Source: an uncultured Planctomycetia bacterium (GTDB lineage Bacteria; Omnitrophota; Gorgyraeia; Tantalellales; Tantalellaceae). From it: a stretch of DNA of 64,000 nucleotides. Positions 17,881-61,276 of this stretch are shown here, in pieces. Both the position numbers and the translations under genes were made by a program. A model generated the notes under the pieces. The model was not told the origin of the DNA. It ran no database searches and saw only the letters and a list, made by a program, of their open reading frames with translations. Each line of letters begins with the position of its first letter. The stretch's first letter is position 1. The stretch spans positions 18,991-82,990 of the forward strand of contig CAZMEZ010000003.1 of NCBI GenBank assembly GCA_964565425.1, written 5' to 3'.

Positions 17881-17883
<3 letters not shown>

Positions 17884-17960
17884 ATTGTGAATAGTGAATT
17901 GTGAATAGTGAGTTGTGGGCCGAACAATGCGATTAACGACTTACGATTCACCATTCACGT
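17881..17960. repeat. GTGAATT/GTGAATA heptamer-stutter inverted repeat (family F1)
   Basis: gtgaattgtgaatagtgaattgtgaatagtgagttgtgg ... cgacttacgattcaccattcacg; homologous to 49091-49161. Confidence 0.8.
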
Positions 17961-17973
17961 TTTTGAAGGAGGC

Positions 17974-18906
17974 ATGATGATATACGATGACATTACTCAG
18001 ACGGTAGGGAATACCCCGCTGATCCGTTTGTCTAAGATAGATAGCGGCCTTCCGGGCAACATATTCGCCAAAGCGGAGTTCTTCAACCCCCTGGGGAGCG
18101 TCAAGGACAGGATAGGCCTCGCCATGATAGAGGCAGCCGAAAAGGAAGGCAAGCTGAAAAAAGGTTCCATCATCATTGAGCCCACCAGCGGCAATACCGG
18201 CATAGCGCTTGCTTTTATCTCGGCAGCCAAGGGGTACAAACTCGTGCTTACCATGCCTGATACCATGAGCGCGGAGAGACGTGCGCTCCTGAGGATATTC
18301 GGCGCCGAGGTAGTGCTTACTCCCGGGGAAAAAGGCATGAAAGGGGCTGTTGATAAAGCCGAAGAGATGGTATCGAAAACGCCGGGCGCGTTCATGCCGC
18401 AGCAGTTCGAGAACCCCGCTAATCCCGGGATCCACCAAAAGACCACGGCGCAGGAGATATGGAACGATACCGACGGGAAAGTCGGCGTATTTGTTGCCGG
18501 CATAGGGACGGGCGGCACCATAACGGGTGTCGGCGAGGTCCTTAAAGGCAGAAAACCCGGTGTCAAGATCATCGGTGTGGAACCCAGGGATTCGGCGATC
18601 CTTTCCGGCGGCCAGCCCGGGCCGCATAAGATACAGGGGATCGGCGCGGGTTTCATTCCTAAGGTCTTGAAAAAAGAACTGTTAGATGAGATAATAACGA
18701 TTCATGACGACGTTGCCGGGGAGATGTCGCGGCGGCTGGCGAAGGAAGAAGGCCTGCTTGTCGGCATATCGGCCGGCGCCAACGTTGCCGCGAGCGTAAA
18801 GGTGGCGTCCAGGGAAGAGAACAAGAATAAGAATATCGTGACCGTGTTATGTGATACCGGTGAAAGATATTTAAGCACTTGGCTTTTCGAGGAATTCCTG
18901 GATTGA
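17974..18906 (+). CDS. cysK: Cysteine synthase A (O-acetylserine sulfhydrylase)
   Basis: GNTPLIRL...SVKDRIGL...[12 protein letters not shown] motifs; RBS GAAGGAGG before ATG 17974 (the track start at 17908 lies in a hairpin repeat). Confidence 0.9.
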
Positions 18907-18931
18907 CCGGGGTAAGCAAGCCAGAGGGAAT

Positions 18932-20086
18932 ATGACCGAAAAAACCAGAAAAAGCAAAAAACAGTACGTGGAGACGAAATACTATAACATGCCCGAGGGC
19001 GAGAAGTTTGTCCTGGAAAGCGGCGTAAAACTCGGTGAGCTTAAGGTAGCGTATGAGGCGTACGGCGAGCTGAACAAGCAAAAAGACAACGCGGTCCTTA
19101 TATGTCACGCCCTTTCCGGTGACGCGCACGCGGCGGGTTATCACCACGGTGATACTAAACCCGGCTGGTGGGATGAGATGATAGGCCCCGGTAAGGCTTT
19201 TGACACGGAAAAGTATTTCGTGATCTGCTCGAACGTGATCGGCGGATGCAAGGGGTCGAGCGGACCCAATTCGATCAACCCTCTTACGGGCGAACCGTAT
19301 GGGCTCAGTTTCCCGATAGTGTCCGTAAGGGACATGGTGAACGCACAGAAAAAGCTTTTGGACCACCTCGGCATAGAAAGGATTCTTTCCGTATGCGGCG
19401 GTTCGATGGGCGGCATGCAGGCCCTTCAGTGGGTCGTTACGCATCCTGAAAGCGTAGTATCCTGCATGCCGATCGCCACGGCCTATAAGCATTCAGCCCA
19501 GCAGATAGCCTTCGACGAAGTCGGCAGGCAGGCCATAATGGCCGACCCCGCATGGAACGGCGGCGACTATTATGATAAGGGGCATCCATCCGCGGGTCTC
19601 GCGGTAGCCAGGATGATAGGCCATATTACGTACATGAGCGATAAGTCCATGGAGGACAAGTTCGGCCGGGTGCTGAAGAAGGAGAAGCTTGGTTTTGAAT
19701 TCACTACGGAATTTGAGGTCGAAGGTTACCTGAGGTACAGGGGGGACAGTTTCGTAAAGAGATTTGACGCCAACTCGTATCTCTATATCACCAAGGCTAT
19801 GGATTATTTCGACCTCCTGAAAGACCAGAAACCGCACCAGATCTTCAAGGGCGTAAAAGCGCGTTTTCTTGTTATAGCGTTCAGCTCAGACTGGCTTTAT
19901 CCGTCTTACCAGTCCAAGGAGATAGTCAAGGCGCTGAAGATGAACGGGATCGACGTTACGTACTGTGAGATAAGCTCGGATTGCGGCCATGATGCCTTCC
20001 TTCTCGAGCTGGAAGAGGAATCGAAACTGATAAGGCATTTTCTGGATAACACGCACAAGAAACTGGAGAGAAAAGGTGACAAGTAA
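18932..20086 (+). CDS. metX: Homoserine O-acetyltransferase
   Basis: Alpha/beta hydrolase motifs [15 protein letters not shown] and [12 protein letters not shown]. Confidence 0.9.
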
Positions 20087-20681
20087 AAGAAAAGAGGATC
20101 TCAGGCTGGATCACAAGGTCATCGGCGATATGGTCGAGACCGGTTCGATGGTGCTTGATATGGGTTGCGGCGACGGGGATCTCCTGGAATATCTCGTGCT
20201 CCAAAAGGACGTAAAAGGCAACGGCGTGGAGATTAGCGAGGAAGCCATATATAAGTGCGTGGAAAAGGGCCTGAGCGTTTCCCAGGGGGATATAGATTCC
20301 GGACTCAAGGAGTACCCTGATAACCTGTTCGATTACATAATATTCAACCAGACGATGCAGCAGGTGCACAGGCCCAAGGAAGCCATAATAGAGGCCTTAA
20401 GGATAGGTAAAAAGGTCATAATAGGGTTCCCGAATTTCTGTTACTGGACGGCCAGGCTGCAGATATTTTTCACGGGCCATGTGCCCGTAACCCCGTCCCT
20501 GCCGTATTCCTGGTACGATACCCCGAACCTTCATTTTCTCAGCATCACGGATTTCAAGGATTTTTGCAGGGATTCGGATGTGGTGGTGGAGAAAAGCGTG
20601 TTTCTTTCCGACAATGGCATGGTGAAGATCATGCCTAACCTTTTTGCCCTTAACGCTGTTTTTCAGATATCGAAGAAATAG
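20076..20681 (+). CDS. metW: Methionine biosynthesis protein MetW
   Basis: ~200 aa SAM-MTase-like protein ([12 protein letters not shown]) overlapping metX by 11 nt, as in typical metXW pairs. Confidence 0.85.
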
Positions 20682-20773
20682 TGATGTGTGATGGGTAATG
20701 TGTGATGAGTCGCAGGTTGTGTGCGCATAACGCCATAGAATAACCCATCACCCCTCACTCGTCACCCATCACT
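20682..20773. repeat. GTGATGG/CCATCAC heptamer-stutter inverted repeat
   Basis: gtgatgtgtgatgggtaatgtgtgatgagtcg ... acccatcacccctcactcgtcacccatcac, directly after the metW stop. Confidence 0.8.
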
Positions 20774-20784
20774 TAAATATTATC

Positions 20785-23940: not shown

Positions 23941-24175
23941 TGTTCAAGGCTAAAGGCGAAAGAGAGCGCCAGCGCGCCAGGTAAAATATCAAAAATCAAA
24001 AAGCAAAGTTCAAATATATAGATCAAAATCCAAGATACTTATTTTTGCTTTTTGATATGAATTGTTGAATTTTAACCCGCATTACTATCACGTAATCTGC
24101 GATCATCTGTGTTTAACGAACAACGATAAACGAATAACGCACAACGCACTGCGATAATACGATAAAAAGGAGCCA
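23941..24175. repeat. Spacer with an ATCAAAA stutter inverted repeat and a CGAACAACGATAAACGAATAACGCACAACG stutter
   Basis: atcaaaaatcaaaaagcaaag...tttgctttttgat followed by cgaacaacgataaacgaataacgcacaacgcac. Confidence 0.7.
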
Positions 24176-24180
24176 TAGCC

Positions 24181-25612: not shown

Positions 25613-25647
25613 AACAGCGTTCAGCGGTCAGCGGACAGGATAAAAAA

Positions 25648-25676
25648 AGACGGCCTGTACAGGCCGTCTTTTTTTA
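25648..25676. terminator. Bidirectional intrinsic terminator between convergent genes
   Basis: A-run, then AGACGGCCU-GUAC-AGGCCGUCU, then T-run. Confidence 0.85.
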
Positions 25677-25696
25677 TCTGCGCCAAGCGTTTGGCT

Positions 25697-31566: not shown

Positions 31567-31636
31567 TTCTTCCAAATATCAGACTCCAGACAGACTCAAG
31601 GATTAAAACACAAGGTCTTTGTTCGGATTTTGTGTC

Positions 31637-31690
31637 ATGTTTTATGATTGCATCACATAACACGTGACGCATAACACAATACTTCATCAC
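31637..31690. repeat. GTGTCAT/ATAACAC stutter (family F2 copy)
   Basis: tgtgtcatgttttatgattgcatcacataacacgtgacgcataacacaatac. Confidence 0.6.
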
Positions 31691-32313: not shown

Positions 32314-32335
32314 CGGTTGAAACCGGGGGGTCAAT

Positions 32336-32527
32336 ATGTATAGGAGATACGCGCTGAAGTTCAACAAGAAACAGGTAGAGTTCATAAATTGCATCAATAT
32401 GGTCGAAAGGATCAGGAAGGCAAGAGCCCTTCCTGAGGGGATCGCGCATCTCGGCGTCAAGCAATATGCCGTCTCTTCGACGGGTCTGGGAAAAAAGACC
32501 TATTTTACGGTAAGGGATTGTGAATAA
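32336..32527 (+). CDS. Hypothetical 63-aa ORF in the mraZ-rsmH spacer
   Basis: ORF only; RBS-like GGGGGG upstream; no family. Confidence 0.25.
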   Translation: MYRRYALKFNKKQVEFINCINMVERIRKARALPEGIAHLGVKQYAVSSTGLGKKTYFTVRDCE

Positions 32528-39701: not shown

Positions 39702-39847
39702 GCCCGGGGATTGATGGGTGGGTTTCGTCGATCGTCGTTCGAATCTCGGGCCATCGATTAAGTAATATAAAGTGTACACGAAATCCGGACCCCGGACAAC
39801 GAACGACGGTTTACGGTTCACGAACATGTATCCAAATTCAGTTCACT
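39702..39847. repeat. CGTCGAT/CGAACGA stutter spacer between mraY and murD (family F3)
   Basis: gtttcgtcgatcgtcgttcgaatctcgg ... gacaacgaacgacggtttacggttcacgaac. Confidence 0.7.
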
Positions 39848-41185: not shown

Positions 41186-41447
41186 GCGCAAGGCGGTGTC
41201 AGTCATCAGACATCAGCGTGGAGCTGGGCGAGGAGTGTTCGCATAGCGCATGGCGCAAAGGGCATAGCGGGTTAAGTGATAAGTAATACGTAATATGTGA
41301 TACGTGGTGTAGGGGGCGCGGGAGCTGTATCTTGTATCTAGTATCTGGTTGACGTGTTTCTTGACGAACAACGAAAAACGAGCGACGAACAACGACTTTG
41401 CCCGATCTATCGGGCACTTATAGCTTAAAGCTTACATCTGACGAAAA
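41186..41447. repeat. Composite intergenic repeat element (copy B), homologous in a mosaic way to 8313-8790
   Basis: Begins GCGCAAGGCGGTGTCAGTCATCAGA right after the murD stop. Contains GAGTGTTCGCATAGCGCATGGCG, GTGATAAGTAATACGTAATATGTGATACG, GACGAACAACGAAAAACGAGCGACGAACAACGAC and CTTATAGCTTAAAGCTTA. Confidence 0.75.
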
Positions 41448-42557
41448 ATGAGCAAAGACGCAAAGATCGTTTTTATAGTGACGTGCGTGCTATTGATGCT
41501 GGGGACCGTCATGATATATTCTTCCAGCGGCGTTTACGCGCATGGGAACTACGGGGACAGTCTGTATTTTGCAAAAAGACACCTCGCTTATCTGGCGGCG
41601 GGGCTGATCGCCGCCGTGGTATGCATGGCCGCGCCTATAAGAGGCATAAATGATTCCGCCAGGATAATAATGATCATTTCCGTTGTCATTCTCGTGGCGG
41701 TCCTGGTGCCCGGCATAGGCAAACAGGTAGCCGGAGCGCGCAGGTGGATGCGTTTTTTCGGCGCGGGTTTTCAGCCTTCCGAGATCGCGAAGCTTGGTCT
41801 TATAATCTACCTGGCGGATCTGACCTCTCGCAAGAGGTATCTGGTCCAGGATTTCAGGCGAGGATTCCTGCCGCCGCTGGTGGTCACCGGATTTGTCAGC
41901 GGCCTTATTCTTGTTGAACCCGATATGGGGACATCGGTTGCCGTGCTGTTCATCGGACTTGCGATGATGTTCATATCCGGCTCCAGGATCTCTCACCTGG
42001 CTCTTATTACGGGAGGAACACTGCCCGTCCTGGCCATTGCCGCGATCTGCGAGCCATACCGGATGAAACGCCTGTTGACGTTCTCCGATCCCTGGAAAGA
42101 CGCCAGGGGGGCCGGATTCCAGCTGGTCCAGTCTTTCATAGCGCTGGGGTCTGGCGGACTCCTGGGCGTGGGCCTGGGCGCGTCAAAACAGAAACTTTTT
42201 TATCTGCCCGAATCGCATACGGATTTTATTTTTTCGATAATTGGAGAAGAGCTGGGATTCCTTGGGGCGGCGTCGGTCCTTATGCTCTTTGCCGCCATTA
42301 TATGGTTTTCCCTCAGGATATCTTTCAAGGTGAAGGACCTTTTTGCCTCACGCCTTGTTTTCGGCATAACCGTCATGATAGCTTTCGAGGTTCTTGTTAA
42401 TATAGGGGTTTCCACCGGGGTGCTGCCCACAAAGGGTTTGCCTTTACCGTTCATAAGTTATGGGGGGACCTCGCTTGTCTGTCACATGGCGGCGATGGGG
42501 CTGGTGTTCAATATGTCGAGGGAAGTTGAGGATGAGACCGTGAACCGTAATCCGTAA
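41448..42557 (+). CDS. ftsW: SEDS-family peptidoglycan glycosyltransferase FtsW
   Basis: 10-TM FtsW/RodA family (PSEIAKLGLIIYLA; GGTSLV); position between murD and murG. Confidence 0.85.
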   Translation: MSKDAKIVFIVTCVLLMLGTVMIYSSSGVYAHGNYGDSLYFAKRHLAYLAAGLIAAVVCMAAPIRGINDSARIIMIISVVILVAVLVPGIGKQVAGARRWMRFFGAGFQPSEIAKLGLIIYLADLTSRKRYLVQDFRRGFLPPLVVTGFVSGLILVEPDMGTSVAVLFIGLAMMFISGSRISHLALITGGTLPVLAIAAICEPYRMKRLLTFSDPWKDARGAGFQLVQSFIALGSGGLLGVGLGASKQKLFYLPESHTDFIFSIIGEELGFLGAASVLMLFAAIIWFSLRISFKVKDLFASRLVFGITVMIAFEVLVNIGVSTGVLPTKGLPLPFISYGGTSLVCHMAAMGLVFNMSREVEDETVNRNP

Positions 42558-42609
42558 ACCGTGACCCGTTGGTTGGATCACTATTCACGGATCACGGTAT
42601 AAAAATACT
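42558..42609. repeat. CCGTGAA/CCGTAAT/CCGTAAA/CCGTGAC heptamer stutter with an inverted partner (ftsW-murG spacer)
   Basis: aaccgtgaaccgtaatccgtaaaccgtgacccg ... cacggatcacgg. Confidence 0.7.
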
Positions 42610-43713: not shown

Positions 43714-43772
43714 GTCGTGGCAACACGCGGGCCTTTACAGCTTATAACTTAAAACTTACAACTTACAGCTTG
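43714..43772. repeat. AGCTTAT/AACTTAA/AACTTAC stutter (family F4, murG-murC spacer)
   Basis: cagcttataacttaaaacttacaacttacagcttg. Confidence 0.7.
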
Positions 43773-45149
43773 ATGATGAACAAGATACACTTTATAGGAA
43801 TAGGCGGTATCGGGATGAGCGGCTTGGCCGACATATTGCTCTCCAGGGGGCAGGAAGTGTCGGGGTCGGATCTCAGGCTGAACTATCTTACGGAACGTCT
43901 AAGTAAAAAGGGGGCGACCATATGCGGTGGGCACTGCGGTGATAATGTTCCCGCAGGAGCGGATTGCGTGGTAAGAACGGCCTGCATAAAGGACGATAAC
44001 CCGGAACTGTTGAGGGCCGGGGAACTGGGTATAAAGGTTATAACGAGGAGCGAGCTGCTGAAAATTTTGATAGACGAATCCCGCGTATCGGTTTCTGTTA
44101 CAGGCACGCACGGCAAGACCACGACGAGCGGCCTTGTCGCACACATAGCTGAAAAATGCGGCAAGTCACCCACCTCTGTCATAGGCGGCGAGCTCGAGAG
44201 TATCGGCGGTAACGCCAAATACGGCCAAAGCGGGGTTATGATAGCCGAGCTTGACGAAAGCGACGGGTTCTTCAGGAACGTGGGTTGCAGCTATGGTATC
44301 GTTACCAATATCGAGAGGGAACACATGGAATATTACGGTTCCATGGAGAGCCTGCTGGAAGCTTACGGCGAGTTCATCTCACGTATCTCTCCGGACGGGA
44401 TCTTTTTTTACAATGGTGAAGACAGATCGCTCGTCTCGCTGGCGGGCAGGACGAAAGCCAGAAAATCGGATTTCGGTATCGATGGACATTTCAGGGTTAC
44501 CTGCTCCAACTATGTCTGCAGAAAGTCTATAGAGTTCGATCTGGCCGTGCGGGGCAGGATATACGGCAGGGTAAAGAGCCCGCTCATAGGGCGTCATAAC
44601 CTGATGAATATCCTGGCGGCCATCAGCGTGTGCCTGGAACTCGGGATAGATTTCAAAGATATTGCCTCTGCCTTGGAAACGTTCCATGGCGCAGGGAGAC
44701 GGTTCGACAGGATAGCGAGGATAGGCGATATTGAGGTCGTAGAGGATTATGCCCATCACCCGACAGAGCTCATGGCGGTGATACGCGCCGCTAAGAATTA
44801 CGGCGAAGGAAGGGTGATCTCCATATTCCAGCCTCACCGCTATTCGAGGACGAACGATCTTGCCGATGGTTTTGTCCGGTGCTTTAACGATTCCGATGTG
44901 CTGATATTGACGGATGTGTATTCCGCGGACGAGAAGCCGGTCGAGGGCGTGAAGATAAGGGATATATACGACAGGATCGATCGCAGCAAGTTCGAAATGC
45001 TCGATTTCGTAAAGAAAGAAGAGATACCCGATCTCGTGTCCAGGATCGTGCGGGATAAGGACCTGGTGCTGGTGCTGGGCGCGGGCGATATCCGGGAGAT
45101 ATCGGCGCCCCTTATCGAGATGATAGAAAAGAGACAAGGGCATGGATGA
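43773..45149 (+). CDS. murC: UDP-N-acetylmuramate--L-alanine ligase
   Basis: IHFIGIGGIGMSGLA and GTHGKTTT motifs. Confidence 0.9.
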   Translation: MMNKIHFIGIGGIGMSGLADILLSRGQEVSGSDLRLNYLTERLSKKGATICGGHCGDNVPAGADCVVRTACIKDDNPELLRAGELGIKVITRSELLKILIDESRVSVSVTGTHGKTTTSGLVAHIAEKCGKSPTSVIGGELESIGGNAKYGQSGVMIAELDESDGFFRNVGCSYGIVTNIEREHMEYYGSMESLLEAYGEFISRISPDGIFFYNGEDRSLVSLAGRTKARKSDFGIDGHFRVTCSNYVCRKSIEFDLAVRGRIYGRVKSPLIGRHNLMNILAAISVCLELGIDFKDIASALETFHGAGRRFDRIARIGDIEVVEDYAHHPTELMAVIRAAKNYGEGRVISIFQPHRYSRTNDLADGFVRCFNDSDVLILTDVYSADEKPVEGVKIRDIYDRIDRSKFEMLDFVKKEEIPDLVSRIVRDKDLVLVLGAGDIREISAPLIEMIEKRQGHG

Positions 45150-46056
45150 AAAGGCGACACGCGATAAATTAGCGGAAATATGCCGGGAAGACGGATGCCG
45201 CCTTTTTTTAGGGGAATCTCTTTCCGGGCGCAGCGCTATACGCATCGGAGGGCAGGCGCTGGCATGGGTGGAGATCCCTTCGGTCGATAAATTTCTGAAC
45301 GCAAGGAAGATCCTTGAAAGAGACGGGGATCGCCATATCGTGGTCGGTAATTGCAGCAACATGCTTTTCCCGGACGGGTACCTGACGGCGGTGCTGATAA
45401 AATTGCGGGGAGGTATTTTTTCGGGGATCCGTTTTGAAGACAACAGGGTGGTCGCCGGCGCAGGGGTCGCGCTCGGTAGTTTGGTGTACGAATCCTGCGC
45501 GAAGGGGCTTGCCGGCCTTGAAGGGCTTGTGGGGATACCCGCCAGTGTCGGCGGGGCCGTTGTGAACAATGCTTCGTACCTCTCGGGGATAAGCGATCGC
45601 CTCGTGAGGGTTCGTATTGTTGACGAGAATTTCAGGGATATTTGGATAAAGAAAGAGAATATCAGTTTCGCCTACCGGGGTTCTTCCCTGAGGGGTAAGA
45701 CCGTTATAGAGGCCATGTTCGAGCTCGAAAAGGCCGACATCGATGGCCTGAAAAGGGATCTAAGGAGCAATTTTATCGAAAAGATGAAGAAACAGCCGCT
45801 TGAAAAGAAGACCCTGGGATGCGTTTTCAAAAATGCCCCCGACGGTTGCTCCGCTGGAGAGGTGATCGACAAAGCGGGGATGAAAGGCGCTCGCGTTGGC
45901 GGGGCCAGGGTTTCCGGGAAACATGCGAATTTTATAATCAACGACGGCGGCGCGAGATCCTCAGACGTAACAGCCCTGATAGATGTGGTAAAGCGTAAGG
46001 TCTTCGAGAAGTTCTCGATAACGCTGGAGCCGGAGATAGAGATAATAAAAGATTAA
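45142..46056 (+). CDS. murB: UDP-N-acetylenolpyruvoylglucosamine reductase
   Basis: FAD-binding PCMH domain plus MurB C-terminal domain; position in the cluster. Confidence 0.85.
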   Translation: MDEKATRDKLAEICREDGCRLFLGESLSGRSAIRIGGQALAWVEIPSVDKFLNARKILERDGDRHIVVGNCSNMLFPDGYLTAVLIKLRGGIFSGIRFEDNRVVAGAGVALGSLVYESCAKGLAGLEGLVGIPASVGGAVVNNASYLSGISDRLVRVRIVDENFRDIWIKKENISFAYRGSSLRGKTVIEAMFELEKADIDGLKRDLRSNFIEKMKKQPLEKKTLGCVFKNAPDGCSAGEVIDKAGMKGARVGGARVSGKHANFIINDGGARSSDVTALIDVVKRKVFEKFSITLEPEIEIIKD

Positions 46057-46059
46057 AGG

Positions 46060-46152
46060 TCAAAAAGCAAAGAGCAAAGATCGGAGATCGAAGATCGAAG
46101 ATCGAAGATCAAAGAGCAAAGAGCAAAGATCGAAGAGCGAGGATCAAAGATA
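46060..46152. repeat. Tandem 8-mer array AGCAAAGA x2, GATCGAAG x3 perfect, then variants (murB-ddl spacer)
   Basis: aagcaaagagcaaagatcggagatcgaagatcgaagatcgaagatcaaagagcaaagagcaaagatcgaagagcgaggatcaaagataagg; contains seven GATC sites in ~90 nt. Confidence 0.85.
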
Positions 46153-47942: not shown

Positions 47943-47951
47943 TAAAGTAAA

Positions 47952-48021
47952 GTGTTATGTGTCACGTGTCATGTGTCGTGTCACGTGATCATAACACATG
48001 ACGCTTAACACATAACACACC
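47952..48021. repeat. GTGTTAT/GTGTCAC ... ATAACAC inverted repeat (family F2, ftsQ-ftsA spacer)
   Basis: gtgttatgtgtcacgtgtcatgtgtcgtgtcacgtgatcataacacatgacgcttaacacataacacacc. Confidence 0.8.
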
Positions 48022-48028
48022 TGAAAAC

Positions 48029-49081: not shown

Positions 49082-49090
49082 ACATAAAAC

Positions 49091-49161
49091 CGTGAATTGT
49101 GAGTTGTGAATCGTAAATCGTGGTTTGATAACGACTCACGACTTACGATTCACGATTCACG
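49091..49161. repeat. GTGAATT stutter inverted repeat (family F1 copy, after ftsA)
   Basis: gtgaattgtgagttgtgaatcgtaaatcgtgg ... cgactcacgacttacgattcacgattcacg. Confidence 0.8.
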
Positions 49162-49242
49162 TATCATACCACCCCCAGCCTGTCACACTTCCATTGACAT
49201 ACCAGCTAAATTATGATAATTTTAACCATTACAATGACAGGT

Positions 49243-49323
49243 TTTAGGTGTTAGGTTCTAGGTTTTGGGCGTTATTCGCACAGTTGAGACCTAGAACCTG
49301 AAACCTAGAACCTTGAACCTAAA
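49243..49323. repeat. GGTTCTAGG/CCTAGAACC inverted repeat upstream of proC
   Basis: aggtgttaggttctaggttttgggcgtt...gagacctagaacctgaaacctagaaccttgaacct. Confidence 0.8.
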
Positions 49324-49334
49324 AAGGGATCATT

Positions 49335-50132: not shown

Positions 50133-50431
50133 TCATGTTCATTTTCGCCGAATTTTTGCGAAGTCTCGCTTTGCTCGTTTCGCTTGTGTTCAATGTCGTG
50201 TTCTTTCTTCTTGTCATCCGGATAATTCTTTCCTGGGTCAACCCCGATCCATATAACGAGATAGTGCAGATCATTTACAGGGTGACGGAGCCGATACTGG
50301 CGCCGTTCCGCAGGTTGCCACTGCAGGCGGGCGGGATAGATTTTTCGCCGATAATCGCGTTTATCCTCTTGAGTGTCCTGCGTAATTTGATGGTGAACAT
50401 ACTTTATCAGATAGCTTATCGTCTGGGATAA
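50129..50431 (+). CDS. yggT: YggT/YlmG-family membrane protein
   Basis: ~100 aa, 2-TM YggT family signature (LVIRIILSWVNPDPYN); ATGA overlap with proC. Confidence 0.8.
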   Translation: MIMFIFAEFLRSLALLVSLVFNVVFFLLVIRIILSWVNPDPYNEIVQIIYRVTEPILAPFRRLPLQAGGIDFSPIIAFILLSVLRNLMVNILYQIAYRLG

Positions 50432-50494
50432 AAGTGGTGAACGGGTAACGCCCAAGACATGTCACGCGTCACCCGTCACCCGTCACTTTTTTAT
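50432..50494. repeat. GTCACCC stutter hairpin plus T-run (yggT-yggU spacer)
   Basis: ggtgaacgggtaacgcccaagacatgtcacgcgtcacccgtcacccgtcactttttt. Confidence 0.7.
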
Positions 50495-50728
50495 ATGAGA
50501 ATAGAGATCAAGGTCTTTCCCAAATCTTCGAGAGAGCAGTTCGTTGAAAAGGACGGGAAGTTGAAGGCTTACGTGAAGGCCCCGCCGGATAAGGGCAAGG
50601 CCAATAAGGCCCTGATAGAGCTTATAGCAAAGGCATATAAGGTAAAAAAGAGCGAGGTGAAGATAATCGCGGGAGAGACGGGCAGGAACAAGGTGGTAGA
50701 GGTATCCGGGACGCGGGGGAAGCGATAA
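50495..50728 (+). CDS. yggU: DUF167/YggU-family protein
   Basis: IKVFPKSSREQF...GKANKALIELIAKAYKVKKSEVKIIAGETGRNKVVEV matches the UPF0235 family; start at ATG 50495 (the track start lies in a repeat). Confidence 0.7.
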   Translation: MRIEIKVFPKSSREQFVEKDGKLKAYVKAPPDKGKANKALIELIAKAYKVKKSEVKIIAGETGRNKVVEVSGTRGKR

Positions 50729-50875
50729 GTGATAGGTGATACTTCCGTTGTTCGTCGATCGTCGTTCGAAATTCGGCACTACCGGCACTCATTACAAAGC
50801 ACAACGCGATATTCGAACCCCGAACTACGGACGACGAACTTGTGCCTTAAGCACGGATAACAAAAGGACAAAATC
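50729..50875. repeat. GTTCGTCG/CGAACTACGGACGACGAAC inverted stutter (family F3)
   Basis: gttgttcgtcgatcgtcgttcgaaattcgg ... cgaaccccgaactacggacgacgaacttgtgcc. Confidence 0.7.
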
Positions 50876-51739
50876 ATGGGAAGGATAGGCATAATAGGCG
50901 GAAGCGCTCTTTATCAAATCGAGGGGCTGGATGTTACGGAGACAAAGGAGGTCTCTACGCCTTTCGGCGAGCCTTCGGACGAACTGGTCATCGGGAAATT
51001 GGCGGGAAAAGAAGTAGCGTTTCTCCCCAGGCACCAGAGGACCCATAGCCTGCTCCCCACGGAAATAAACTACAGGGCGAACATATTCGCCATGAAACTT
51101 ATGGGTGTCGACAGGATAATATCCATTTCGGCCGTCGGCAGTCTTAAGGAAGAAGTAAAGCCGCTGGATGTGCTCCTTGTGGACCAGTTCATAGACAGGA
51201 CCAACCAGGGCCGGTCCACGACCTTTTTCGGCGATGGTTTCGTGGCGCACGTGGCTTTCGCTCAGCCGGTATGTTCCGAGATGAAGGATATTATCTATAA
51301 AAGCAACCGCGCGCTTGATATCAAGATACACGACGGAGGGACGTATATCAACATGGAAGGCCCCGCTTTTTCCACGAAGGCCGAGTCATATCTTTACAAG
51401 AGCTGGGGCGCCGATGTGATAGGAATGACAAACATACAGGAAGCGCGCCTTTCAAGGGAAGCCGGTATTTGCTATTCCACGATCGCTATGATAACGGATT
51501 ACGATTGCTGGCATCTAAGCCCGGAAGTCGAGACGGTATCGGTCGATGTTGTCCTGGAGAATCTCAACAAAAATGCCGATATGGCCAAAAAGATGCTGGT
51601 GAATACGATAAAGAGCCTTCCGGAGAAAAGGTCATGTGGTTGCGGCGAAGCGCTTCGCAACGCTATCGTTACCAGGAGGGAAGCCGTTCCGAAGGAGACG
51701 CTTGAGAGATTAAAGCCGATAATAGAGGGGTTTATTTGA
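50876..51739 (+). CDS. mtnP: S-methyl-5'-thioadenosine phosphorylase
   Basis: PNP/MTAP family (IGIIGGSALY; FLPRHQRTHSLLPTEINYRANI; GMTN). Confidence 0.85.
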   Translation: MGRIGIIGGSALYQIEGLDVTETKEVSTPFGEPSDELVIGKLAGKEVAFLPRHQRTHSLLPTEINYRANIFAMKLMGVDRIISISAVGSLKEEVKPLDVLLVDQFIDRTNQGRSTTFFGDGFVAHVAFAQPVCSEMKDIIYKSNRALDIKIHDGGTYINMEGPAFSTKAESYLYKSWGADVIGMTNIQEARLSREAGICYSTIAMITDYDCWHLSPEVETVSVDVVLENLNKNADMAKKMLVNTIKSLPEKRSCGCGEALRNAIVTRREAVPKETLERLKPIIEGFI

Positions 51740-51792
51740 TCGGCGTTCGTCGTTAGTCGTTCGCAGTTCGCAGTTCGCAGAACGGGAATGAT
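51740..51792. repeat. GTTCGTC/GTTCGCA stutter (mtnP-ileS spacer, family F3)
   Basis: ggcgttcgtcgttagtcgttcgcagttcgcagttcgcagaacgg. Confidence 0.75.
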
Positions 51793-55012: not shown

Positions 55013-55461
55013 TTCTTATCTACTCCGTTTCCGCTCTTGTGTTCCTGCTGGACCAGGTATCGAAACATTTCGTAAGAACGATGTTCCAGCAGGGCAGCAG
55101 CATCCCCGTCATCGATGATCTGTTCCACATCACTTTAGTGTACAACACCGGAGCCGCTTTCGGCATGCTCAAAGCCTGGCCATATCTTTTCGTTGCCGTT
55201 TCCGTTCTGGCGGTGGCGATCATAAACTACATGTTTCTCAAAAAACGGCACGTCCTTAAACCGGGAGAAAAAGCCGCTCTCTGCTTTATAATGGCGGGGA
55301 CGCTGGGCAACCTTGCGGACAGGATCCGATTGGGATGCGTTGTGGATTTCATCGACCTGAGGGTGTGGCCGGTCTTTAATGTCGCGGATAGCTTCATCAC
55401 GATAGGCGCCGTGATGCTGGGCTGGTCCATCTTCATGGGGATCAGGAGGCGTAATGCATAG
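54976..55461 (+). CDS. lspA: Lipoprotein signal peptidase II
   Basis: LLDQVSKHFV, NTGAAFG and FNVADS motifs of peptidase A8. Confidence 0.85.
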   Translation: MPGKERKIRGEIVLIYSVSALVFLLDQVSKHFVRTMFQQGSSIPVIDDLFHITLVYNTGAAFGMLKAWPYLFVAVSVLAVAIINYMFLKKRHVLKPGEKAALCFIMAGTLGNLADRIRLGCVVDFIDLRVWPVFNVADSFITIGAVMLGWSIFMGIRRRNA

Positions 55462-56215
55462 AATAATCGGGCAGATAGGGCCCTTTACGTTGTATTCCTA
55501 CGGCTTGATGGTCGCCATCGGTTTTCTTTTGTCTACCGTTCTTATTCTCAGGGATTCCGGCAAGTTCAATCTTTCGAGGGATGATGTTTTTGACTGCCTT
55601 ATAGCGGTTTTGGCGGGCGGTATCGCCGGCGGGCGCCTTTTGTTCGTTTTCATAAATTACAGGTACTATCTGGAAAATCCCTTGAGGATCTTCGCTATTT
55701 ACGAGGGCGGGCTGGCCATACAGGGAGCCCTGGCAGGCGCGGTCCTGAGCGGTGCCATAGTTGCCCTGGTCAAGGGGATGCCATTCTGGAGGACCAGCGA
55801 TCTCATCGCGCCTTACGCGGCGCTCGGACAGGCGGTGGGACGGATAGGGTGTTTCTTGAACGGGTGCTGTTATGGCACGGTGACGGAAAACGGGATAGGG
55901 GTCACATTCCCCGGTGAATCCTTTATGAGGGTGCCGATCCAGGTGTATTCCAGCCTTTTTCTCGTTCTCGTCTTTATTACCCTGATATCTCTGAGAGAGA
56001 AGCGCCCTTTTGACGGAGCCCTGTTCTCCATTTATCTTGTCCTGTATTCGTTCTTCAGATTTTTCGCCGATTATTTTCGCGGGGACGACTTGACCGCTTT
56101 CGGGGGCGGGTTAACGCTTTCACAGGTCATCAGCGCATTCACGTTCGCCTCCGGCGTTATCATTTTCCTGACGCTGGCGGTCCTCAAGGGAATGGGCGAA
56201 ACCGCAAAAAGGTGA
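55454..56215 (+). CDS. lgt: Prolipoprotein diacylglyceryl transferase
   Basis: Lgt signature GRIGCFLNGCCYG; multi-TM. Confidence 0.9.
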   Translation: MHRIIGQIGPFTLYSYGLMVAIGFLLSTVLILRDSGKFNLSRDDVFDCLIAVLAGGIAGGRLLFVFINYRYYLENPLRIFAIYEGGLAIQGALAGAVLSGAIVALVKGMPFWRTSDLIAPYAALGQAVGRIGCFLNGCCYGTVTENGIGVTFPGESFMRVPIQVYSSLFLVLVFITLISLREKRPFDGALFSIYLVLYSFFRFFADYFRGDDLTAFGGGLTLSQVISAFTFASGVIIFLTLAVLKGMGETAKR

Positions 56216-56221
56216 TCCGCT

Positions 56222-57139
56222 ATGGAGGAGATCAAGCTCAAGATAGATCCGGAAGAGGCCGGCGCCAGAATAGACAAGTGTGTCGCGGATAAGCTCGGGG
56301 AAGATTACTCCCGGACATACGTGAGATTCCTTATAGACCGGGGGTTTCTTCTCGTTAACGGGAAGAAGGAAAAGCCCAGGTATATCGCCAGGGCCGGCGA
56401 CGAGGTTGTTCTTTCTCTGGCGCCGCTCCCCAGGGACGAAGCATTGAAACCGGAAGACATGCCTCTGGACGTAGTTTACGAGGACGAACACATCGCGGTC
56501 ATTAACAAGCCCGCGGGCATGGTGGTCCATCCGGCCGCGGGCAACTGGAGCGGAACCCTTGTTAACGCGCTTCTTTTCCATTGCGGCAAGCTCGCGGACA
56601 GCGACGATGAGACGCGTCCGGGGGTCGTGCACCGCCTTGATAAGGATACCTCCGGCATTATCGTTGTCGCCAAGAACAGCAGGGCCATGCGGTCGCTTGG
56701 CAAGCAGTTCCAGAACAGGAAGGTGAAGAAAAAATACGTTGCTCTTGTCAAAGGACGCGTTGAAATGGATAATGGTGTTATAGACGCCCCTGTAGGCAGA
56801 CACCCCGCGAACAGACAAAAAATGGCCGTGAACACGGAGGGCGCCAGAGAAGCCAGGACCGTCTATCATGTAATAAAGAGATACGGGAACTTTACGCATC
56901 TCGAGGTCTATCCGGAAACGGGCAGGATGCATCAGATAAGGGTGCATCTGGATCACATCGGTTATCCGGTCCTGGGCGACAGTGTATACGGCAGGGATGC
57001 CAGGTTTGGCCGCCAGGCGCTGCACGCCGAGATGATAGGTTTTACGCATCCGGATTCCGGCAAGTACATGGAATTCCGCGCGCCCCTGCCGGAGGATATG
57101 CGGAAGTTCTTAGCGGAAGCGGAGAAGGGCAAGAAATAG
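56222..57139 (+). CDS. rluD: RluA-family 23S rRNA pseudouridine synthase (RluD-like)
   Basis: S4-like N-terminus plus catalytic HRLDKDTSG motif. Confidence 0.85.
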   Translation: MEEIKLKIDPEEAGARIDKCVADKLGEDYSRTYVRFLIDRGFLLVNGKKEKPRYIARAGDEVVLSLAPLPRDEALKPEDMPLDVVYEDEHIAVINKPAGMVVHPAAGNWSGTLVNALLFHCGKLADSDDETRPGVVHRLDKDTSGIIVVAKNSRAMRSLGKQFQNRKVKKKYVALVKGRVEMDNGVIDAPVGRHPANRQKMAVNTEGAREARTVYHVIKRYGNFTHLEVYPETGRMHQIRVHLDHIGYPVLGDSVYGRDARFGRQALHAEMIGFTHPDSGKYMEFRAPLPEDMRKFLAEAEKGKK

Positions 57140-57141
57140 GA

Positions 57142-57216
57142 TGTCGTGTTATGTGTAAAGTGTCATGTGTCATGAAGGGTGCCGACACATTACACATTAC
57201 ACGTGACACATAACAC
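57142..57216. repeat. GTGTTAT/GTGTCAT ... ACATTAC/ATAACAC inverted repeat (family F2, rluD-aroA spacer)
   Basis: tgtcgtgttatgtgtaaagtgtcatgtgtcatg...gacacattacacattacacgtgacacataacac. Confidence 0.8.
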
Positions 57217-57226
57217 AGGGAAAAAC

Positions 57227-58519
57227 ATGGACTGGAAGATAAGCAAAGCCGATTCGGGACTCAGGGGCGTATTGGAAGTGCCGCCCGACAAGAGTATTTC
57301 GCACAGGGCCGTGATGTTCGCTTCCATATCCACCGGGGAATGCAGCATAGCGAATTTTCTTTTCGGCGAGGACTGCGTGAGTACACTCAACGCCTTTCGG
57401 GCAATGGGAGTGGAAATAGCGAAAGAAGGTAAGGGCCTGGCGGTAAAGGGAAGAGGCCTTAAGGGTTTACGCGAGCCGCAGTCCGAGCTTTATCTCGGGA
57501 ATTCCGGGACGACGATGCGTATTATATCCGGGATACTCGCCGGACAGGATTTTACGGCGGTTCTTACCGGCGATGAGTCCCTTTCAAAGCGTCCGATGCG
57601 GCGTATCATGGATCCGCTCAGGATGATGGGGGCAAGCGTAGAATCCATTAATGGAGGGGACCACGCCCCGTTAAAAATAACGGGAGCAAGAGGCTCTCTA
57701 AAGGCTATCGATTGTGTCCTGCCCATGGCCAGTGCCCAGGTGAAGTCGTGTGTGCTGGCAGCCGGTCTTTACGCCGACGGTACGACAAAGGTCACCGAGC
57801 CATTTCAGTCGAGGGACCATACCGAACGTATGCTTGAACTCTTCTCGGCGGATATCAAAAAAGGGGGTCTTGGCACGGAGATCAGTGGGCTGAAGGAACT
57901 TGTTCCCAGGGACATCGTAGTTCCCGGTGATATTTCCAGTGCCGCGTTCTTTATTGTCGCAGCCCTGGTAGTAAAAGGGTCTAAGCTGGTTTTGCGCAAC
58001 GTCGGGCTGAACCCGACGCGGACGGGAATGATCGACGTACTTAAGAGGATGGGGGCGAAAATAAACATTCTTGACCGCTGCAACGGTGTCGAGCCCAAAG
58101 GAGACATAGAGGTCAGGTATTCCGATCTCAGGGGCACGGTCGTGGAAGAAAAAGAGATCCCTCTTTTGATAGACGAGATCCCGGTCCTCGCGGTAGCCGC
58201 GTCCGTAGCCGAAGGGGAGACGGTCATGAGGGGCATAAAAGAGCTTAAGGTCAAAGAGACGGACCGTGTAAAGGCCGTTAAAGACAACCTTTCCCTGATG
58301 GGTGTGAAAACGGGGGAAGAAGGCGACAGTCTTAAGATCAAGGGAACGGCCGCTGCCTTGAGCGCCTCGGAAGTGAATAGCTACGGTGACCACCGAATCG
58401 CCATGAGCATGGCGATAGCCGCGCTGGTGTCCGACGGAACGTGTCTTGTCCGGGATACAAGTTGCGCGGAAACATCCTACCCCGCTTTTTTGCGAGATAT
58501 GGGGAAAATATCGAAGTAA
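57227..58519 (+). CDS. aroA: 3-phosphoshikimate 1-carboxyvinyltransferase (EPSP synthase)
   Basis: SKSISHRAVMFASI and LGNSGTTMR motifs; start at ATG 57227 (the track ORF is extended through an upstream hairpin repeat). Confidence 0.9.
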   Translation: MDWKISKADSGLRGVLEVPPDKSISHRAVMFASISTGECSIANFLFGEDCVSTLNAFRAMGVEIAKEGKGLAVKGRGLKGLREPQSELYLGNSGTTMRIISGILAGQDFTAVLTGDESLSKRPMRRIMDPLRMMGASVESINGGDHAPLKITGARGSLKAIDCVLPMASAQVKSCVLAAGLYADGTTKVTEPFQSRDHTERMLELFSADIKKGGLGTEISGLKELVPRDIVVPGDISSAAFFIVAALVVKGSKLVLRNVGLNPTRTGMIDVLKRMGAKINILDRCNGVEPKGDIEVRYSDLRGTVVEEKEIPLLIDEIPVLAVAASVAEGETVMRGIKELKVKETDRVKAVKDNLSLMGVKTGEEGDSLKIKGTAAALSASEVNSYGDHRIAMSMAIAALVSDGTCLVRDTSCAETSYPAFLRDMGKISK

Positions 58520-58624
58520 ACCGTTTCGAACGGCGGTCTTGCGACATTTTTAGTATATACTCAAAACCTGCGCGGTCTCTCCCTGTAAGCCCCGCCATCC
58601 AGATTATATAACACATAAAAAAAT

Positions 58625-58653
58625 TTGACTTTGCATAAGTTATCTGGTAGTAT
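58625..58653 (+). promoter_or_regulatory. Candidate sigma70 promoter for the mre operon (TTGACT-17-TAGTAT)
   Basis: Hexamers at 17-nt spacing in the AT-rich spacer, ~70 nt upstream of mreB. Confidence 0.5.
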
Positions 58654-58724
58654 TTTTACAAACCATAAAAAGTTGGCTCATAACCCGTTATCAGCAAATG
58701 TATTACAGGGGGTAGAAATATATT

Positions 58725-59783
58725 ATGCAACATTACCTGCAAAGATTCTTCGATAATGTCGTAGGCCTATTCTCCAGTGACATGGGGATAGATCTCGGGA
58801 CCGCCTCCACTCTTGTCTATCTCAAGAATGAGGGCATAGTACTTTGTGAGCCGTCCGTTGTAGCTATCGAGGCCGGGACATCCAATGTTCTTGCCGTAGG
58901 GGAAGAGGCCAAGCGGATGCTCGGAAGGACCCCGGGCAACATCGTGGCTATAAGGCCCATGAGGGATGGTGTTATAGCCGACTTTGAGATAACCGAAGCC
59001 ATGCTAAGATATTTCATCAAAAAGGTGCACAACTCCCGCAGGCTTGTCCGGCCCCGGATCGTGATAGCCGTTCCTTCCGGCATAACCGAAGTGGAAAAAC
59101 GCGCGGTAAAGGATTCCGCCCTTCACGCCGGAGCGCGGGAAGTGTATATGATCGAGGAACCGGTAGCCGCTTCGATAGGTGTCGGCTTGCCCATACAGGA
59201 GCCGTCGGGGAACATGATAATAGACATAGGCGGAGGCACGACAGAGATGGCCGTTATCTCGCTGGCAGGGGTCGTATTTTCCAAGTCCATCAGGATCGGT
59301 GGGGATGAAATGGACGAGGCGATAATAAACTATCTCAAGAGGACCTATAATCTCATGATCGGCGAAAGGACCGCCGAAGAGATCAAGATAAGGATCGGTT
59401 CCGGCTACCCCATGGAAGAAGAGATGACGATGGATGTGAGAGGGCGCGATCTCGTGGCCGGTCTTCCGAAAATGATAACCATAACGAGCGAAGAGATACG
59501 CGAGGCTCTTTCAGAACCTATCGCGCAAATAGTCGAAGCCGTGAGGATCACGCTTGAAAGGACCCCCCCGGAGCTTTCCGCCGACCTCATAGAGAAGGGT
59601 CTGATACTGGCGGGCGGAGGAGCTCTCTTGAGGGGCTTGGATAAACTTATCTCCGAAGAGACGAGTCTTCCGGTCCATCTGGCGGATGACCCGCTGACGG
59701 CCGTAGCTCTGGGTACGGGAAAAGTGCTGAGCGAGATGAGGTATCTCAAGCGGCTCACGGTGGCTCCGAAACTCCATAAATAA
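58725..59783 (+). CDS. mreB: Rod shape-determining protein MreB
   Basis: Actin-like motifs [23 protein letters not shown] and [12 protein letters not shown]. Confidence 0.9.
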
Positions 59784-59791
59784 GTCTCGAT

Positions 59792-60568
59792 GTGCTTACG
59801 TTTTTCAAAAACCAAAAGACCTGGATATCGCTGCTATCCATCCTTATCGCGGCGTTTCTTCTTTTATTCTTACCATCGTTTTCCGCGGGCGTAAAACGCC
59901 TTTCTTCCAATATCCTGCTGGTCCCCGTGAAAGTGTCGAACGGCATCGGCGACCATTTCCGTTCGAAGAGAGAACTCCTTAACGAGAATGAATCCCTCAA
60001 AAAGCGCGGGGGAGAACTCTCGCTTGAGATGCAAAGGTTCGGGGAATTGAAGGGGGAGAATCAGCGTCTTCGCGATCTCCTGCACTTTAAAAGGTCAGTA
60101 GGGGTCGATACCATTTCGGCCGAGGTCATAGCGAGAGATCCCAACGACTGGGCCGGCTCTTTCGTGATAGACAAAGGGGTCGATGACGGGTTGAAGAAGG
60201 ACATGGCGGTATGTTCATCGAAAGGGTTGTTGGGGAAGGTCGTCGATCCACATAAGAGCACGAGTCTGGTGATGCTCATAACCCATCCGGGGTTCAAGAC
60301 GGGCGGCATGCTCAGAGATTCTCGCATCAACGGTATCGTTGTGGGAGAAGGGAAGGGTACCGTGAAGATGCTTTATATTCCCGTGGACGCCGAAGTTAAA
60401 GCGGGAGAAACGGTCATAACATCCGGATTCAGCCGTATATTCCCGAAAGGAATAGTTATCGGTGAAGTGGTTTCCGTGGATCGGAGCAAGACCGGATTAT
60501 ATAAGTATGCGACCATAAAACCTTCGGCGGATTCGTTCACTCAGGAAGAAGTGCTTTGCATTAAGTAA
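59792..60568 (+). CDS. mreC: Rod shape-determining protein MreC
   Basis: N-terminal TM, coiled coil (LKKRGGELSLEMQRFGELKGENQRLRDLL), C-terminal beta domain; position after mreB. Confidence 0.8.
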   Translation: MLTFFKNQKTWISLLSILIAAFLLLFLPSFSAGVKRLSSNILLVPVKVSNGIGDHFRSKRELLNENESLKKRGGELSLEMQRFGELKGENQRLRDLLHFKRSVGVDTISAEVIARDPNDWAGSFVIDKGVDDGLKKDMAVCSSKGLLGKVVDPHKSTSLVMLITHPGFKTGGMLRDSRINGIVVGEGKGTVKMLYIPVDAEVKAGETVITSGFSRIFPKGIVIGEVVSVDRSKTGLYKYATIKPSADSFTQEEVLCIK

Positions 60569-60654
60569 AAGAGCGCGAAACAAGATATCGGGTTCCGCAG
60601 TGCGGACAAATCACAATAAACGGATCCGGCGATCAGCGCCCGCACCCCACACAT

Positions 60655-60704
60655 GTTTGTAATTTGTGATTTGTTCGTAATTTGTGATTTGTGATTTGTG
60701 ATTT
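60655..60704. repeat. Tandem ATTTGTG heptamer array (mreC-mreD spacer)
   Basis: gtaatttgtgatttgttcgtaatttgtgatttgtgatttgtgatttc. Confidence 0.85.
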
Positions 60705-60719
60705 CAAATAAGGTCCCTC

Positions 60720-61202
60720 ATGAAACAACGCGCGATCCTCTATATTCTTCTGTTCGCTTTTTTCTTCCTGCAGGTTTCTTTCATGGGAAGGGTGAATTGG
60801 TTCCCCGACCTGGTCCTTCTGATCGTGATCTTTACGGGCATGTTCCGCGGAAGCGCTGAAGGCGGGCTCATGGGTCTTGCGGCGGGATTTCTCAGGGGAT
60901 GTTTTTCTGTTAACACCTTTGTCCTGGACCTGTTCTTATTTCCGGTGGTCGGCCTGGTCTCGTCCGTTATGCCACGGTTATTTTACCGTCAGAACGCGGC
61001 TGCGCAGGTCTTTGTCGTCCTGCTGGCGTTACTCGCGGTCGTAAATGCCCACGCACTCTACATGAACTCCGTGTGGGGGAATGATGTCAGCCTTCCCGCT
61101 GTTATATTCAACAGCAGGGGAGTATTCGCCGGGACGCTGATCGCCGCCCCCTTGCTTTTTGCTTTTCTTAAAAGGATATTGCATGTGGAGGACGAGGTAT
61201 AG
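60720..61202 (+). CDS. mreD: Rod shape-determining protein MreD
   Basis: ~160 aa polytopic membrane protein between mreC and the PBP2 gene. Confidence 0.6.
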   Translation: MKQRAILYILLFAFFFLQVSFMGRVNWFPDLVLLIVIFTGMFRGSAEGGLMGLAAGFLRGCFSVNTFVLDLFLFPVVGLVSSVMPRLFYRQNAAAQVFVVLLALLAVVNAHALYMNSVWGNDVSLPAVIFNSRGVFAGTLIAAPLLFAFLKRILHVEDEV

Positions 61203-61276
61203 GTGCGCGGTTCGTGGTATACGGTTAGCGGTTTACGGTATTCGAACGACGAACGACGAGCGACGAACGACGAAAA
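61203..61276. repeat. GGTTTACGG / CGAACGA tandem stutter (mreD-mrdA spacer, family F3)
   Basis: ggttcgtggtatacggttagcggtttacggtattcgaacgacgaacgacgagcgacgaacgacg. Confidence 0.8.

Follow-up and report, generated by a model that had tools for sequence, protein, structure and literature searches.

Degenerate heptanucleotide arrays and hairpins in the intergenic spacers of an Omnitrophota genome

Intergenic heptamer repeats of bacteria have been noted since 1990 and were surveyed in 2007, their origin and the choice of 7 nt remaining unexplained. In Xanthomonas, GGGAATC heptamers lie between open reading frames (ORFs) that are aligned, are seldom found within coding DNA or between divergent ORFs, and sit at or overlap stop codons; about four units are usual, array length differs between species, and each genome holds 70-75 convergent inverted pairs (Rehm et al. 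2015, PMC4692102). Nostoc has the intergenic heptamer word GGGGA(T/C)T, and the same authors remark that detailed literature focused on these repeats is lacking (PMC4692102). The survey of long simple sequence repeats (LSSRs) by Mrazek et al. (2007), as recounted in PMC4679880 and PMC4692102, has heptanucleotide units dominating the long repeats, with a sporadic phylogeny and an intergenic location, and proposes polymerase slippage. The TAACTGA repeats of Beggiatoaceae and the heptamers among cyanobacterial short tandemly repeated repetitive (STRR) sequences are also intergenic, many of them ending a few nucleotides before start codons (MacGregor 2015, PMC4679880). They occur even within essential operons, and their horizontal spread has been proposed (PMC4679880). 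We describe here a many-worded relation of these repeats in a 64,000-nt stretch, hereafter the window, of contig CAZMEZ010000003.1 (assembly GCA_964565425.1) from an uncultured bacterium of the Omnitrophota. Its spacers had been singled out in a sequence-only reading of positions 17881-61276 as chains of drifting short words. The feature is real, natural and statistically strong, and of a known but mechanistically unexplained kind.

Period-7 arrays between genes

Of the 66 tandem arrays that Tandem Repeats Finder (TRF) locates in the window, 37 have period 7; almost all lie in gaps separating long + strand ORFs. Autocorrelation of these gaps gives a self-identity of 0.353 at lag 7, against about 0.265 at adjacent lags, and there are harmonics at its multiples, 0.321 for lag 14 and 0.297 for lag 21; in coding DNA the period-3 signal stands alone. 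When an array is defined by at least 11 of 14 matches at lag 7, the window contains 39, compared with 2.1±1.2 (maximum 5) after 50 block-wise dinucleotide shuffles, and the identical rule at lags 5, 6, 8, 9 and 10 returns 1-6 arrays each. Once the gene map has been corrected by homology, 15.2% of non-coding bases fall within arrays, and 0.28% of coding bases. The enrichment of period 7 in intergenic over coding DNA, which the sequence-only reading had named as a check, is thus borne out, within the window, by both autocorrelation and array counts, and it survives the shuffled-spacer control that had been set beforehand as a possible refutation, the periodicity being lost on shuffling. In common with LSSRs, the arrays have head-to-tail tandem units of 5-11 nt, here 7, in greater number than composition predicts. 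Words of 8 nt had been described alongside those of 7, but period 8 is essentially a single case (2746-2837).

Unit copies are degenerate, with TRF matches of 73-100% and typically about 80%, unlike the near-perfect arrays of Thermoanaerobaculia considered below. In several arrays a period of 14 nt outscores that of 7, as at 17880 (95% against 83% matches), 49285, 42538 and 61208. By eye, neither a motif common to all words nor a consistent GT-rich left arm was evident. Words such as GTGAATT, GTGTCAT, CGAACGA, AAAGATC and GCTTAAA lack G3 tracts and hence the requisite of a G-quadruplex.

There are 41 gene junctions in 17881-61276, of which 15 are essentially without spacer. Of the 26 spacers that reach 40 nt, arrays are present in 16 under the strict threshold and in 18 under the relaxed one, so that they are indeed common, but mark about two thirds of true spacers rather than almost every gene. 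By orientation they are found in 18 of 34 co-directional and both convergent spacers, and in none of the three divergent ones. The distance from stop codon to first array has a median of +4 nt, the stop codon itself often being overlapped, and from the array end to the next start codon it is about 12 nt; the spacers are thus filled. A start near the stop codon, as first proposed, is therefore correct but only half of the picture: the next start is equally near once a ribosome-binding site is allowed for, and we reject the idea that stop codons are specifically targeted. The positional hallmarks of the Xanthomonas repeats (aligned ORFs, stop codons, depletion between divergent ORFs, convergent pairs) are all seen in the window. 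The longest array, AAAGATC with 14.9 copies (46048..46151), runs unpaired from the murB stop codon to the ribosome-binding site of ddl, and TTACAAC (5.3 copies, 43735..43773) lies in the murG-murC spacer. CAGCGGT (3.4 copies, 25613..25639) begins at a stop codon and is followed by a separate canonical terminator.

Arrays extend to just before the next ribosome-binding site and at times rewrite the final codons upstream. An ACCGTAA array (3.7 copies, with an inverted partner, 42536..42598) contains the final six codons and stop codon of ftsW, whose product closes with the eight residues DETVNRNP (42531-42557). The window protein ends in SREVEDETVNRNP, while a 96% identical homologue, P0121, ends in SREVEEQ. 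Since the FtsW tail is encoded by the array and differs from the EQ ending of P0121, arrays can rewrite protein C-termini. The suspicion that they also lend spurious N-termini to predicted ORFs proved right for cysK, murD and aroA; in the HhH-GPD glycosylase the domain starts late, which is consistent with it. That gene follows the one period-8 hairpin, AAGTCAAA (3.6 copies) and CTTTGTGA (4.4 copies), which lies at about 2744..2837 after an M48 peptidase gene (minimum free energy (MFE) -28.4, z -4.0). In the same spacer (2744..2835) a GAAGGAT array of 3.6 copies spans the peptidase stop codon, and GCTTAAA (5 copies, 3520..3559) spans that of the glycosylase.

All-against-all comparison finds 13 significantly similar spacer pairs, against 0-1 in shuffles, and recovers the recurrence at distant loci of the four word families, F1-F4, that had been proposed. 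F1 matches at 96% over 25 nt (17936-17960 and 49138-49162). F2 recurs at 31654, 47952 and 57192; a single metagenome scan with its 18-mer GTGATCATAACACATGAC gave 8 unrelated chance matches and zero F2 elements. F3 is identical over 20 nt at 39724 and 50751, with further copies at 41365, 61243 and 24116. F4, to which the GCTTAAA and TTACAAC arrays belong, is found at 3533, 8594, 41424 and 43741. An additional module outside these families is 100% identical over 20 nt at 8503 and 41232. Single spacers can be mosaics: that at 8366..8790 (425 nt) holds five to six arrays (AGGCTAG, AGTTACC, CGCATAG, AGCTGTA, ATTTTTA, CTGGTAA), with AGTTACC at 8453 and its complement CTGGTAA at 8739 as an outer inverted pair, and that at 23941..24180 combines GCTAAAG, AAAAATC and the F3-like TAACGAA. 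The CTGGTAA array (3.3 copies, 8739-8761) can also be read as (TAACTGG)n, one base from the TAACTGA of Beggiatoaceae, cyanobacteria and some Bacteroidetes; the resemblance may be coincidence.

Two long spacers are array-free. That between mraZ and rsmH (32314-32797, 484 nt) contains two ORFs of about 60 codons (32337-32528 and 32597-32779). That between aroA and mreB (58520-58724), 177-205 nt long in all relatives and 79% identical to its counterpart on the related contig L068, probably holds the mre promoter and 5' untranslated region (UTR). Across the window GC skew is positive in all 1-kb bins but one and nearly all genes lie on the + strand, consistent with a long leading-strand stretch. 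A small ORF at 30779-31036 matches PF02229 (E=5e-10), the domain of the PC4/p15 transcriptional coactivator that binds single-stranded DNA, and adjoins a PilZ-domain gene (31102-31566).

Spacer inflation and turnover among relatives

In protein searches the best species representative for Ddl, 69% identical, belongs to Candidatus Omnitrophota, and the window MTAP has a 92% identical homologue on L068, a contig of an independent European Nucleotide Archive (ENA) assembly. L068 runs collinear with the window from 49172 to 61749; over these 12.6 kb, spacers included, the nucleotide identity is 86.8%, and the two have orthologous arrays in common. This bears directly on whether the stutter could be an artefact of assembly, synthesis or sequence generation. 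The contigs of relatives do terminate within array-rich spacers, L068 (1-455) upstream of proC and P0121 (JGI 3300042731) 66 nt upstream of ftsW, which suggests that these repeats break short-read assemblies; and MTAP, the sole protein looked up by exact sequence, is absent from a collection of 15 billion proteins. Like arrays are nevertheless present in metagenome-assembled genomes (MAGs) from different assemblers and on a 5-Mb contig (L063), and the third-position divergence of coding regions is normal. Independent assemblies lay the earlier worry to rest, and we consider an artefact extremely improbable.

Gene order from murE to PBP2 is kept across the relatives. In the sister Omnitrophota loci L069, L071, L072, L001 and L007, however, genes overlap or abut where the window has array-filled spacers. 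With sister lengths drawn from database gene calls and our own boundary estimates, and negative values denoting overlap, the murD-ftsW spacer measures 262 nt in the window and 1, -4 and -8 nt in sisters. The corresponding figures are 52 and -4 nt for ftsW-murG, 56 and -4 to -14 nt for murG-murC, 103 and -4 to 8 nt for murB-ddl, 53 and 1-3 nt for mtap-ileS, 87 and 1 nt for rluD-aroA, 151 and -13 to 28 nt for mreC-mreD, and 74 and 7-17 nt for mreD-PBP2; yggU-mtap, 152 nt in the window, overlaps in sisters. In the window lineage, arrays have separated genes whose counterparts in the sister lineages overlap or abut.

Other Omnitrophota MAGs do bear arrays, at period-7 densities of 5.7 (L006), 2.9 (L005) and 2.4 (L037) per 10 kb, and these three have them at similar junctions made of unrelated words. 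At murD-ftsW, for example, the words are AACTAAC/TGAGTTG in L006 and GATGTCA/ATCTGAA in L037, while the window spacer (41186..41447) strings together unpaired CGCATAG, GTAATAC, TGTATCT, ACGAACA and the F4 word GCTTAAA (z -0.3).

Turnover is rapid even over the shorter distance to L068. Window and L068 agree at 77% of four-fold degenerate sites, whereas array-bearing spacers mostly fall below this, at 0.27-0.64 with indels counted. Changes of copy number by whole units, seen against this one relative, comprise two GTCACCC units at 50457-50490, within an array of 3.7 copies (50430..50492) that is two units shorter in L068, and one unit at 51740, a 7-nt indel in the GTTCGTC/GTTCGCA array (51738..51785; complement of the F3 word) that fills the mtap-ileS spacer. 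The F1 hairpin 3' of ftsA (49086..49162) is missing from L068, and the hairpin of AGGTTTT (4 copies) and ACCTAAA (5.1 copies) directly 5' of proC (49237..49326) is common to it in part, with indels. Where the window has F3 sequence in the yggU-mtap and mreD-PBP2 spacers, L068 has F2 hairpins. In the former (50719..50842) an AAGTGAT array precedes the F3 hairpin GTTGTTCGTCGATCGTCGTTCG ... CGAACCCCGAACTACGGACGACGAAC, of which F2 in L068 replaces the left arm and loop; in the latter (61208..61277), composed of CGGTTAG (period 14) and CGAACGA (F3, 4.6 copies) arrays, it takes the place of the middle. The mreC-mreD spacer holds a hairpin and a TTTGTGA array of 7.4 copies (60596..60709).

Period-7 arrays are also carried by loci of Thermoanaerobaculia (Acidobacteriota), one of them on L063. 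The palindromes in these MAGs are near-perfect, nested heptamers or octamers, for example GTTGTCG x4 ... GACAACC x4, with MFE down to about -99 kcal/mol (L044 6095-6300; L046 560-735 and 4535-4675; L063 3840-4050, 5835-5990, 8930-9075 and 9775-9965). On L063 they lie 7-8 nt past, or overlap, apparent stop codons, and one is just 5' of ddl. No description of them was found in the literature searched.

Palindromes, function and mobility

Clear inverted pairing involves 12 of the 39 arrays, making six strict pairs (17876/17936, 20680/20740, 47950/47999, 49088/49128, 49239/49295 and 57151/57182). Left arms facing reverse-complement right arms therefore exist, but at about one third of arrays are not the usual arrangement that they had seemed. 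In the F1 hairpin at 17876..17962 (GTGAATT, 5.4 copies, and ACGATTC) the TGA stop of a metY-like gene lies in the first unit, and the hairpin supplies the spurious extension of cysK. Others are GTGATGT (3.9 copies) with ACCCATC (4.3 copies) between metW and an AddA-like helicase gene (20678..20775; MFE -36.8, z -3.3), and the F3 hairpin TTCGTCGATCGTCGTTCGAA ... CGGACAACGAACGACGG of the mraY-murD spacer (39718..39812), within the over-extended murD ORF.

Folding z-scores fall below -2 in 17 of 41 spacers and in 4 of 40 coding controls. This, together with the position of arrays at or over stop codons, accords with a functional explanation, in which the spacers are mRNA stabilising or processing stem-loops, weak terminators or attenuators, translation modulators, or arrays read by a heptamer-binding protein. 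Some Escherichia coli repetitive extragenic palindromic (REP) sequences modulate translation close to stop codons. Among the heptamer repeats, those of Xanthomonas are mostly transcribed (PMC4692102), and MacGregor proposed that TAACTGA repeats lying upstream of start codons act in translation (PMC4679880). Local support comes from the F2 hairpin of the rluD-aroA spacer (57144..57219), which over 57140-57226 is 92% identical in L068 and so exceeds the neutral 77%; this suggests constraint on at least that copy. Its seven differences from L068 follow no clear compensatory pattern, which says little, since the arms can pair in several 7-nt registers.

Most other evidence runs counter to a general function in RNA. 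If pairing in the sense transcript mattered, G·U pairs would favour the + strand, yet that strand is the more stable in only 8 of 15 hairpins (mean difference +0.7 kcal/mol, Wilcoxon p=0.85). Several array-rich spacers (41186-41447, 8366-8790, 43714-43775, 61203-61276) are no better folded than their shuffles. Canonical terminators of GC stem and U-tract occur apart from the arrays (5285-5325, 6797-6829, 16014-16050, 25641-25677), whereas the heptamer hairpins are long, mismatch-rich and, except at 17962 and 50490, mostly without T-runs, and thus do not answer to the definition of an intrinsic terminator. A terminator-pattern scan of 1-20000 gave 24 hits against 22.3 in shuffles, hence no excess. 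In the window no Rfam family matches the arrays and a tRNA scan found nothing within them. The equal folding of both strands, the spacerless sisters that keep overlapping genes, the words that differ by lineage at one and the same junction, and the unpaired arrays argue against general mRNA punctuation. The suggestion that these stem-loops punctuate polycistronic transcripts thus finds no support, given also that most array spacers outpace four-fold sites in divergence, and we regard a functional explanation of the arrays at large as distinctly improbable, while individual copies, the conserved F2 hairpin for one, may have a role. The sole Rfam match in the window is a full-length c-di-GMP-I riboswitch (RF01051, 13437-13532, - strand, 62 bits) upstream of a GH113 glycoside hydrolase gene (12243-13433).

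Another possibility is that the hairpins are non-autonomous elements, akin to REP/REPIN sequences or to MITEs (miniature inverted-repeat transposable elements), moved by an enzyme for which the heptamers are binding sites, slippage being secondary. F2 accords with this. Its six copies, half of them in the window and half in L068, can be aligned along about 70 nt, a stretch that takes in some of the loop; two of those in L068 are at sites that the window lacks, and two window copies have defined ends in the form of an 11-nt terminal inverted repeat, GTGTTATGTGT...ACACATAACAC; terminal inverted repeats and non-orthologous copies are what is expected of a MITE. One such copy lies in the ftsQ-ftsA spacer (47950..48022; MFE -35.8, z -7.2), and a short degenerate member of the family, GTGTCAT... 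/ ...ATAACAC, lies at 31628..31682. F1 and F3 copies share arms of 20-25 nt at 96-100% identity, their loops differing. No direct repeat of the sort that flanks MITEs as a target-site duplication could be read from the sequences beside five F2 copies; none is expected of HUH/RAYT-type insertion (RAYT, REP-associated tyrosine transposase).

Against an enzyme-moved element, a Pfam scan of window ORFs turned up neither a RAYT nor a transposase in those covered, and the GTAG head of REP sequences is absent from these 55-95 nt hairpins, F2 starting GTGTTATG and F1 GTGAATT. Dozens of unrelated words in the same genome and in sister lineages would demand many specificities, many single arrays have no inverted partner, and copy number changes in place by unit steps. 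An origin of this sort we hold to be rather unlikely. Repeated transposon footprints and telomerase-like templated addition were set aside, each array having its own word in up to 15 copies.

Origin of the arrays and comparison with known systems

The reading that we favour, with a probability of roughly 0.55, is that the spacers are degenerate heptanucleotide tandem arrays generated by a lineage-specific repeat process acting on DNA, mostly neutral or selfish, and are not conserved RNA elements. A 7-nt unit would first be amplified in place by replication slippage, its copies then decaying and being duplicated anew, one or two units at a time. The array on either arm of a palindrome would be mirrored onto the opposite arm through fold-back or template-switch synthesis or inverted duplication, and the long hairpins left behind would be imperfect, with mismatches at 7-nt intervals. 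We infer such mirroring because nested A-B-loop-B'-A' palindromes (L044 6095-6300, L046 560-735) are hard to obtain via independent slippage on two arms. Finally, whole modules of 20-80 nt would be copied to other spacers, by ectopic template switching or an enzyme, to give the dispersed families F1-F4. Selection purges coding DNA of arrays, and likewise the divergent spacers, which bear promoters; arrays therefore build up between co-directional genes. Most copies are probably neutral or selfish and a few may have acquired a role.

A process of this kind was among the alternatives that the sequence-only reading had offered, as slippage or as REP/MITE-like seeding. Whole-unit indels, 14-nt repeats, hairpins of about 70 nt at non-orthologous sites and spacerless sisters all fit it, as does the sharing of arms and even loop sequence by dispersed copies. 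Several points weigh on the other side. The steps of the mechanism are all reconstructed from their products, a single close relative, L068, was compared, and the genome is represented by 64 kb; cleanly whole-unit indels number two, the remaining gaps falling in replaced, unalignable sequence. Slippage alone explains neither the preference for 7 nt nor the spread of modules to distant loci, and the conservation of the F2 hairpin upstream of aroA does not sit well with neutrality.

More speculatively, and in our view improbably, the heptamer palindromes would form a class of element in their own right, common to Omnitrophota, Thermoanaerobaculia and Xanthomonas, that propagates actively and is written by a specific enzyme or polymerase activity at the 3' ends of genes. 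Were that so, they would reshape operons, in that translational coupling would be broken, C-termini rewritten and new 5' UTRs created, and that conserved F2 hairpin would be among the copies recruited as regulators. A natural comparison is provided by closely related Omnitrophota in which the same operons are either inflated by arrays or wholly compact, and setting the gene content of inflated lineages against that of compact ones could reveal the activity responsible. The practical effects are over-extension of ORFs at the 5' end (cysK, murD, aroA), altered C-termini (FtsW) and the ends of contigs in two relatives.

How, then, do the window arrays relate to described systems? A literature search on Omnitrophota and intergenic repeats returned nothing relevant. 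To REP sequences, bacterial interspersed mosaic elements (BIMEs) and bacterial MITEs they are alike in being intergenic, palindromic, dispersed, mosaic and close to the stop codons of co-directional genes, and to REP sequences also in having no evident target-site duplication. They differ from all of these in lacking a GTAG head, in stems of 25-35 bp with an internal 7-nt periodicity, in the want of a RAYT or transposase in the window, and in that many arrays are not palindromic. With LSSRs, so far as the survey is relayed in the later papers, they have in common a heptanucleotide unit and an intergenic location, but LSSRs are near-perfect by definition, whereas the window copies are 73-95% alike, have a 14-nt higher order and inverted arms, and fall into dispersed families. 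The array at 8739 brings them within one base of the TAACTGA word, yet genomes with TAACTGA or STRR repeats use a single word or a handful, and inverted pairs are all but lacking in them (BOGUAY has one indirect repeat), as against many words and frequent palindromes here.

The anatomy most like that of the window is found in Xanthomonas and Nostoc, the two having in common with it tandem 7-nt units, co-directional spacers, stop codons, convergent pairs (in Xanthomonas) and variation in length. There, however, the repeat is essentially one G-rich word, read as forming G-quadruplexes, whereas the window has dozens, mostly non-G-rich and drifting within an array; its modules are mosaic, two thirds of its spacers are occupied, and the host belongs to another phylum. 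Since the same anatomy is built here from many words that are not G-rich, the G-quadruplex reading of the Xanthomonas repeats cannot be a general explanation. What is new in the present case is the multi-word, degenerate and mosaic form of the arrays, their very high occupancy of spacers, their occurrence in Omnitrophota and Thermoanaerobaculia and, from the sister loci, direct evidence that formerly compact operon junctions have been inflated.

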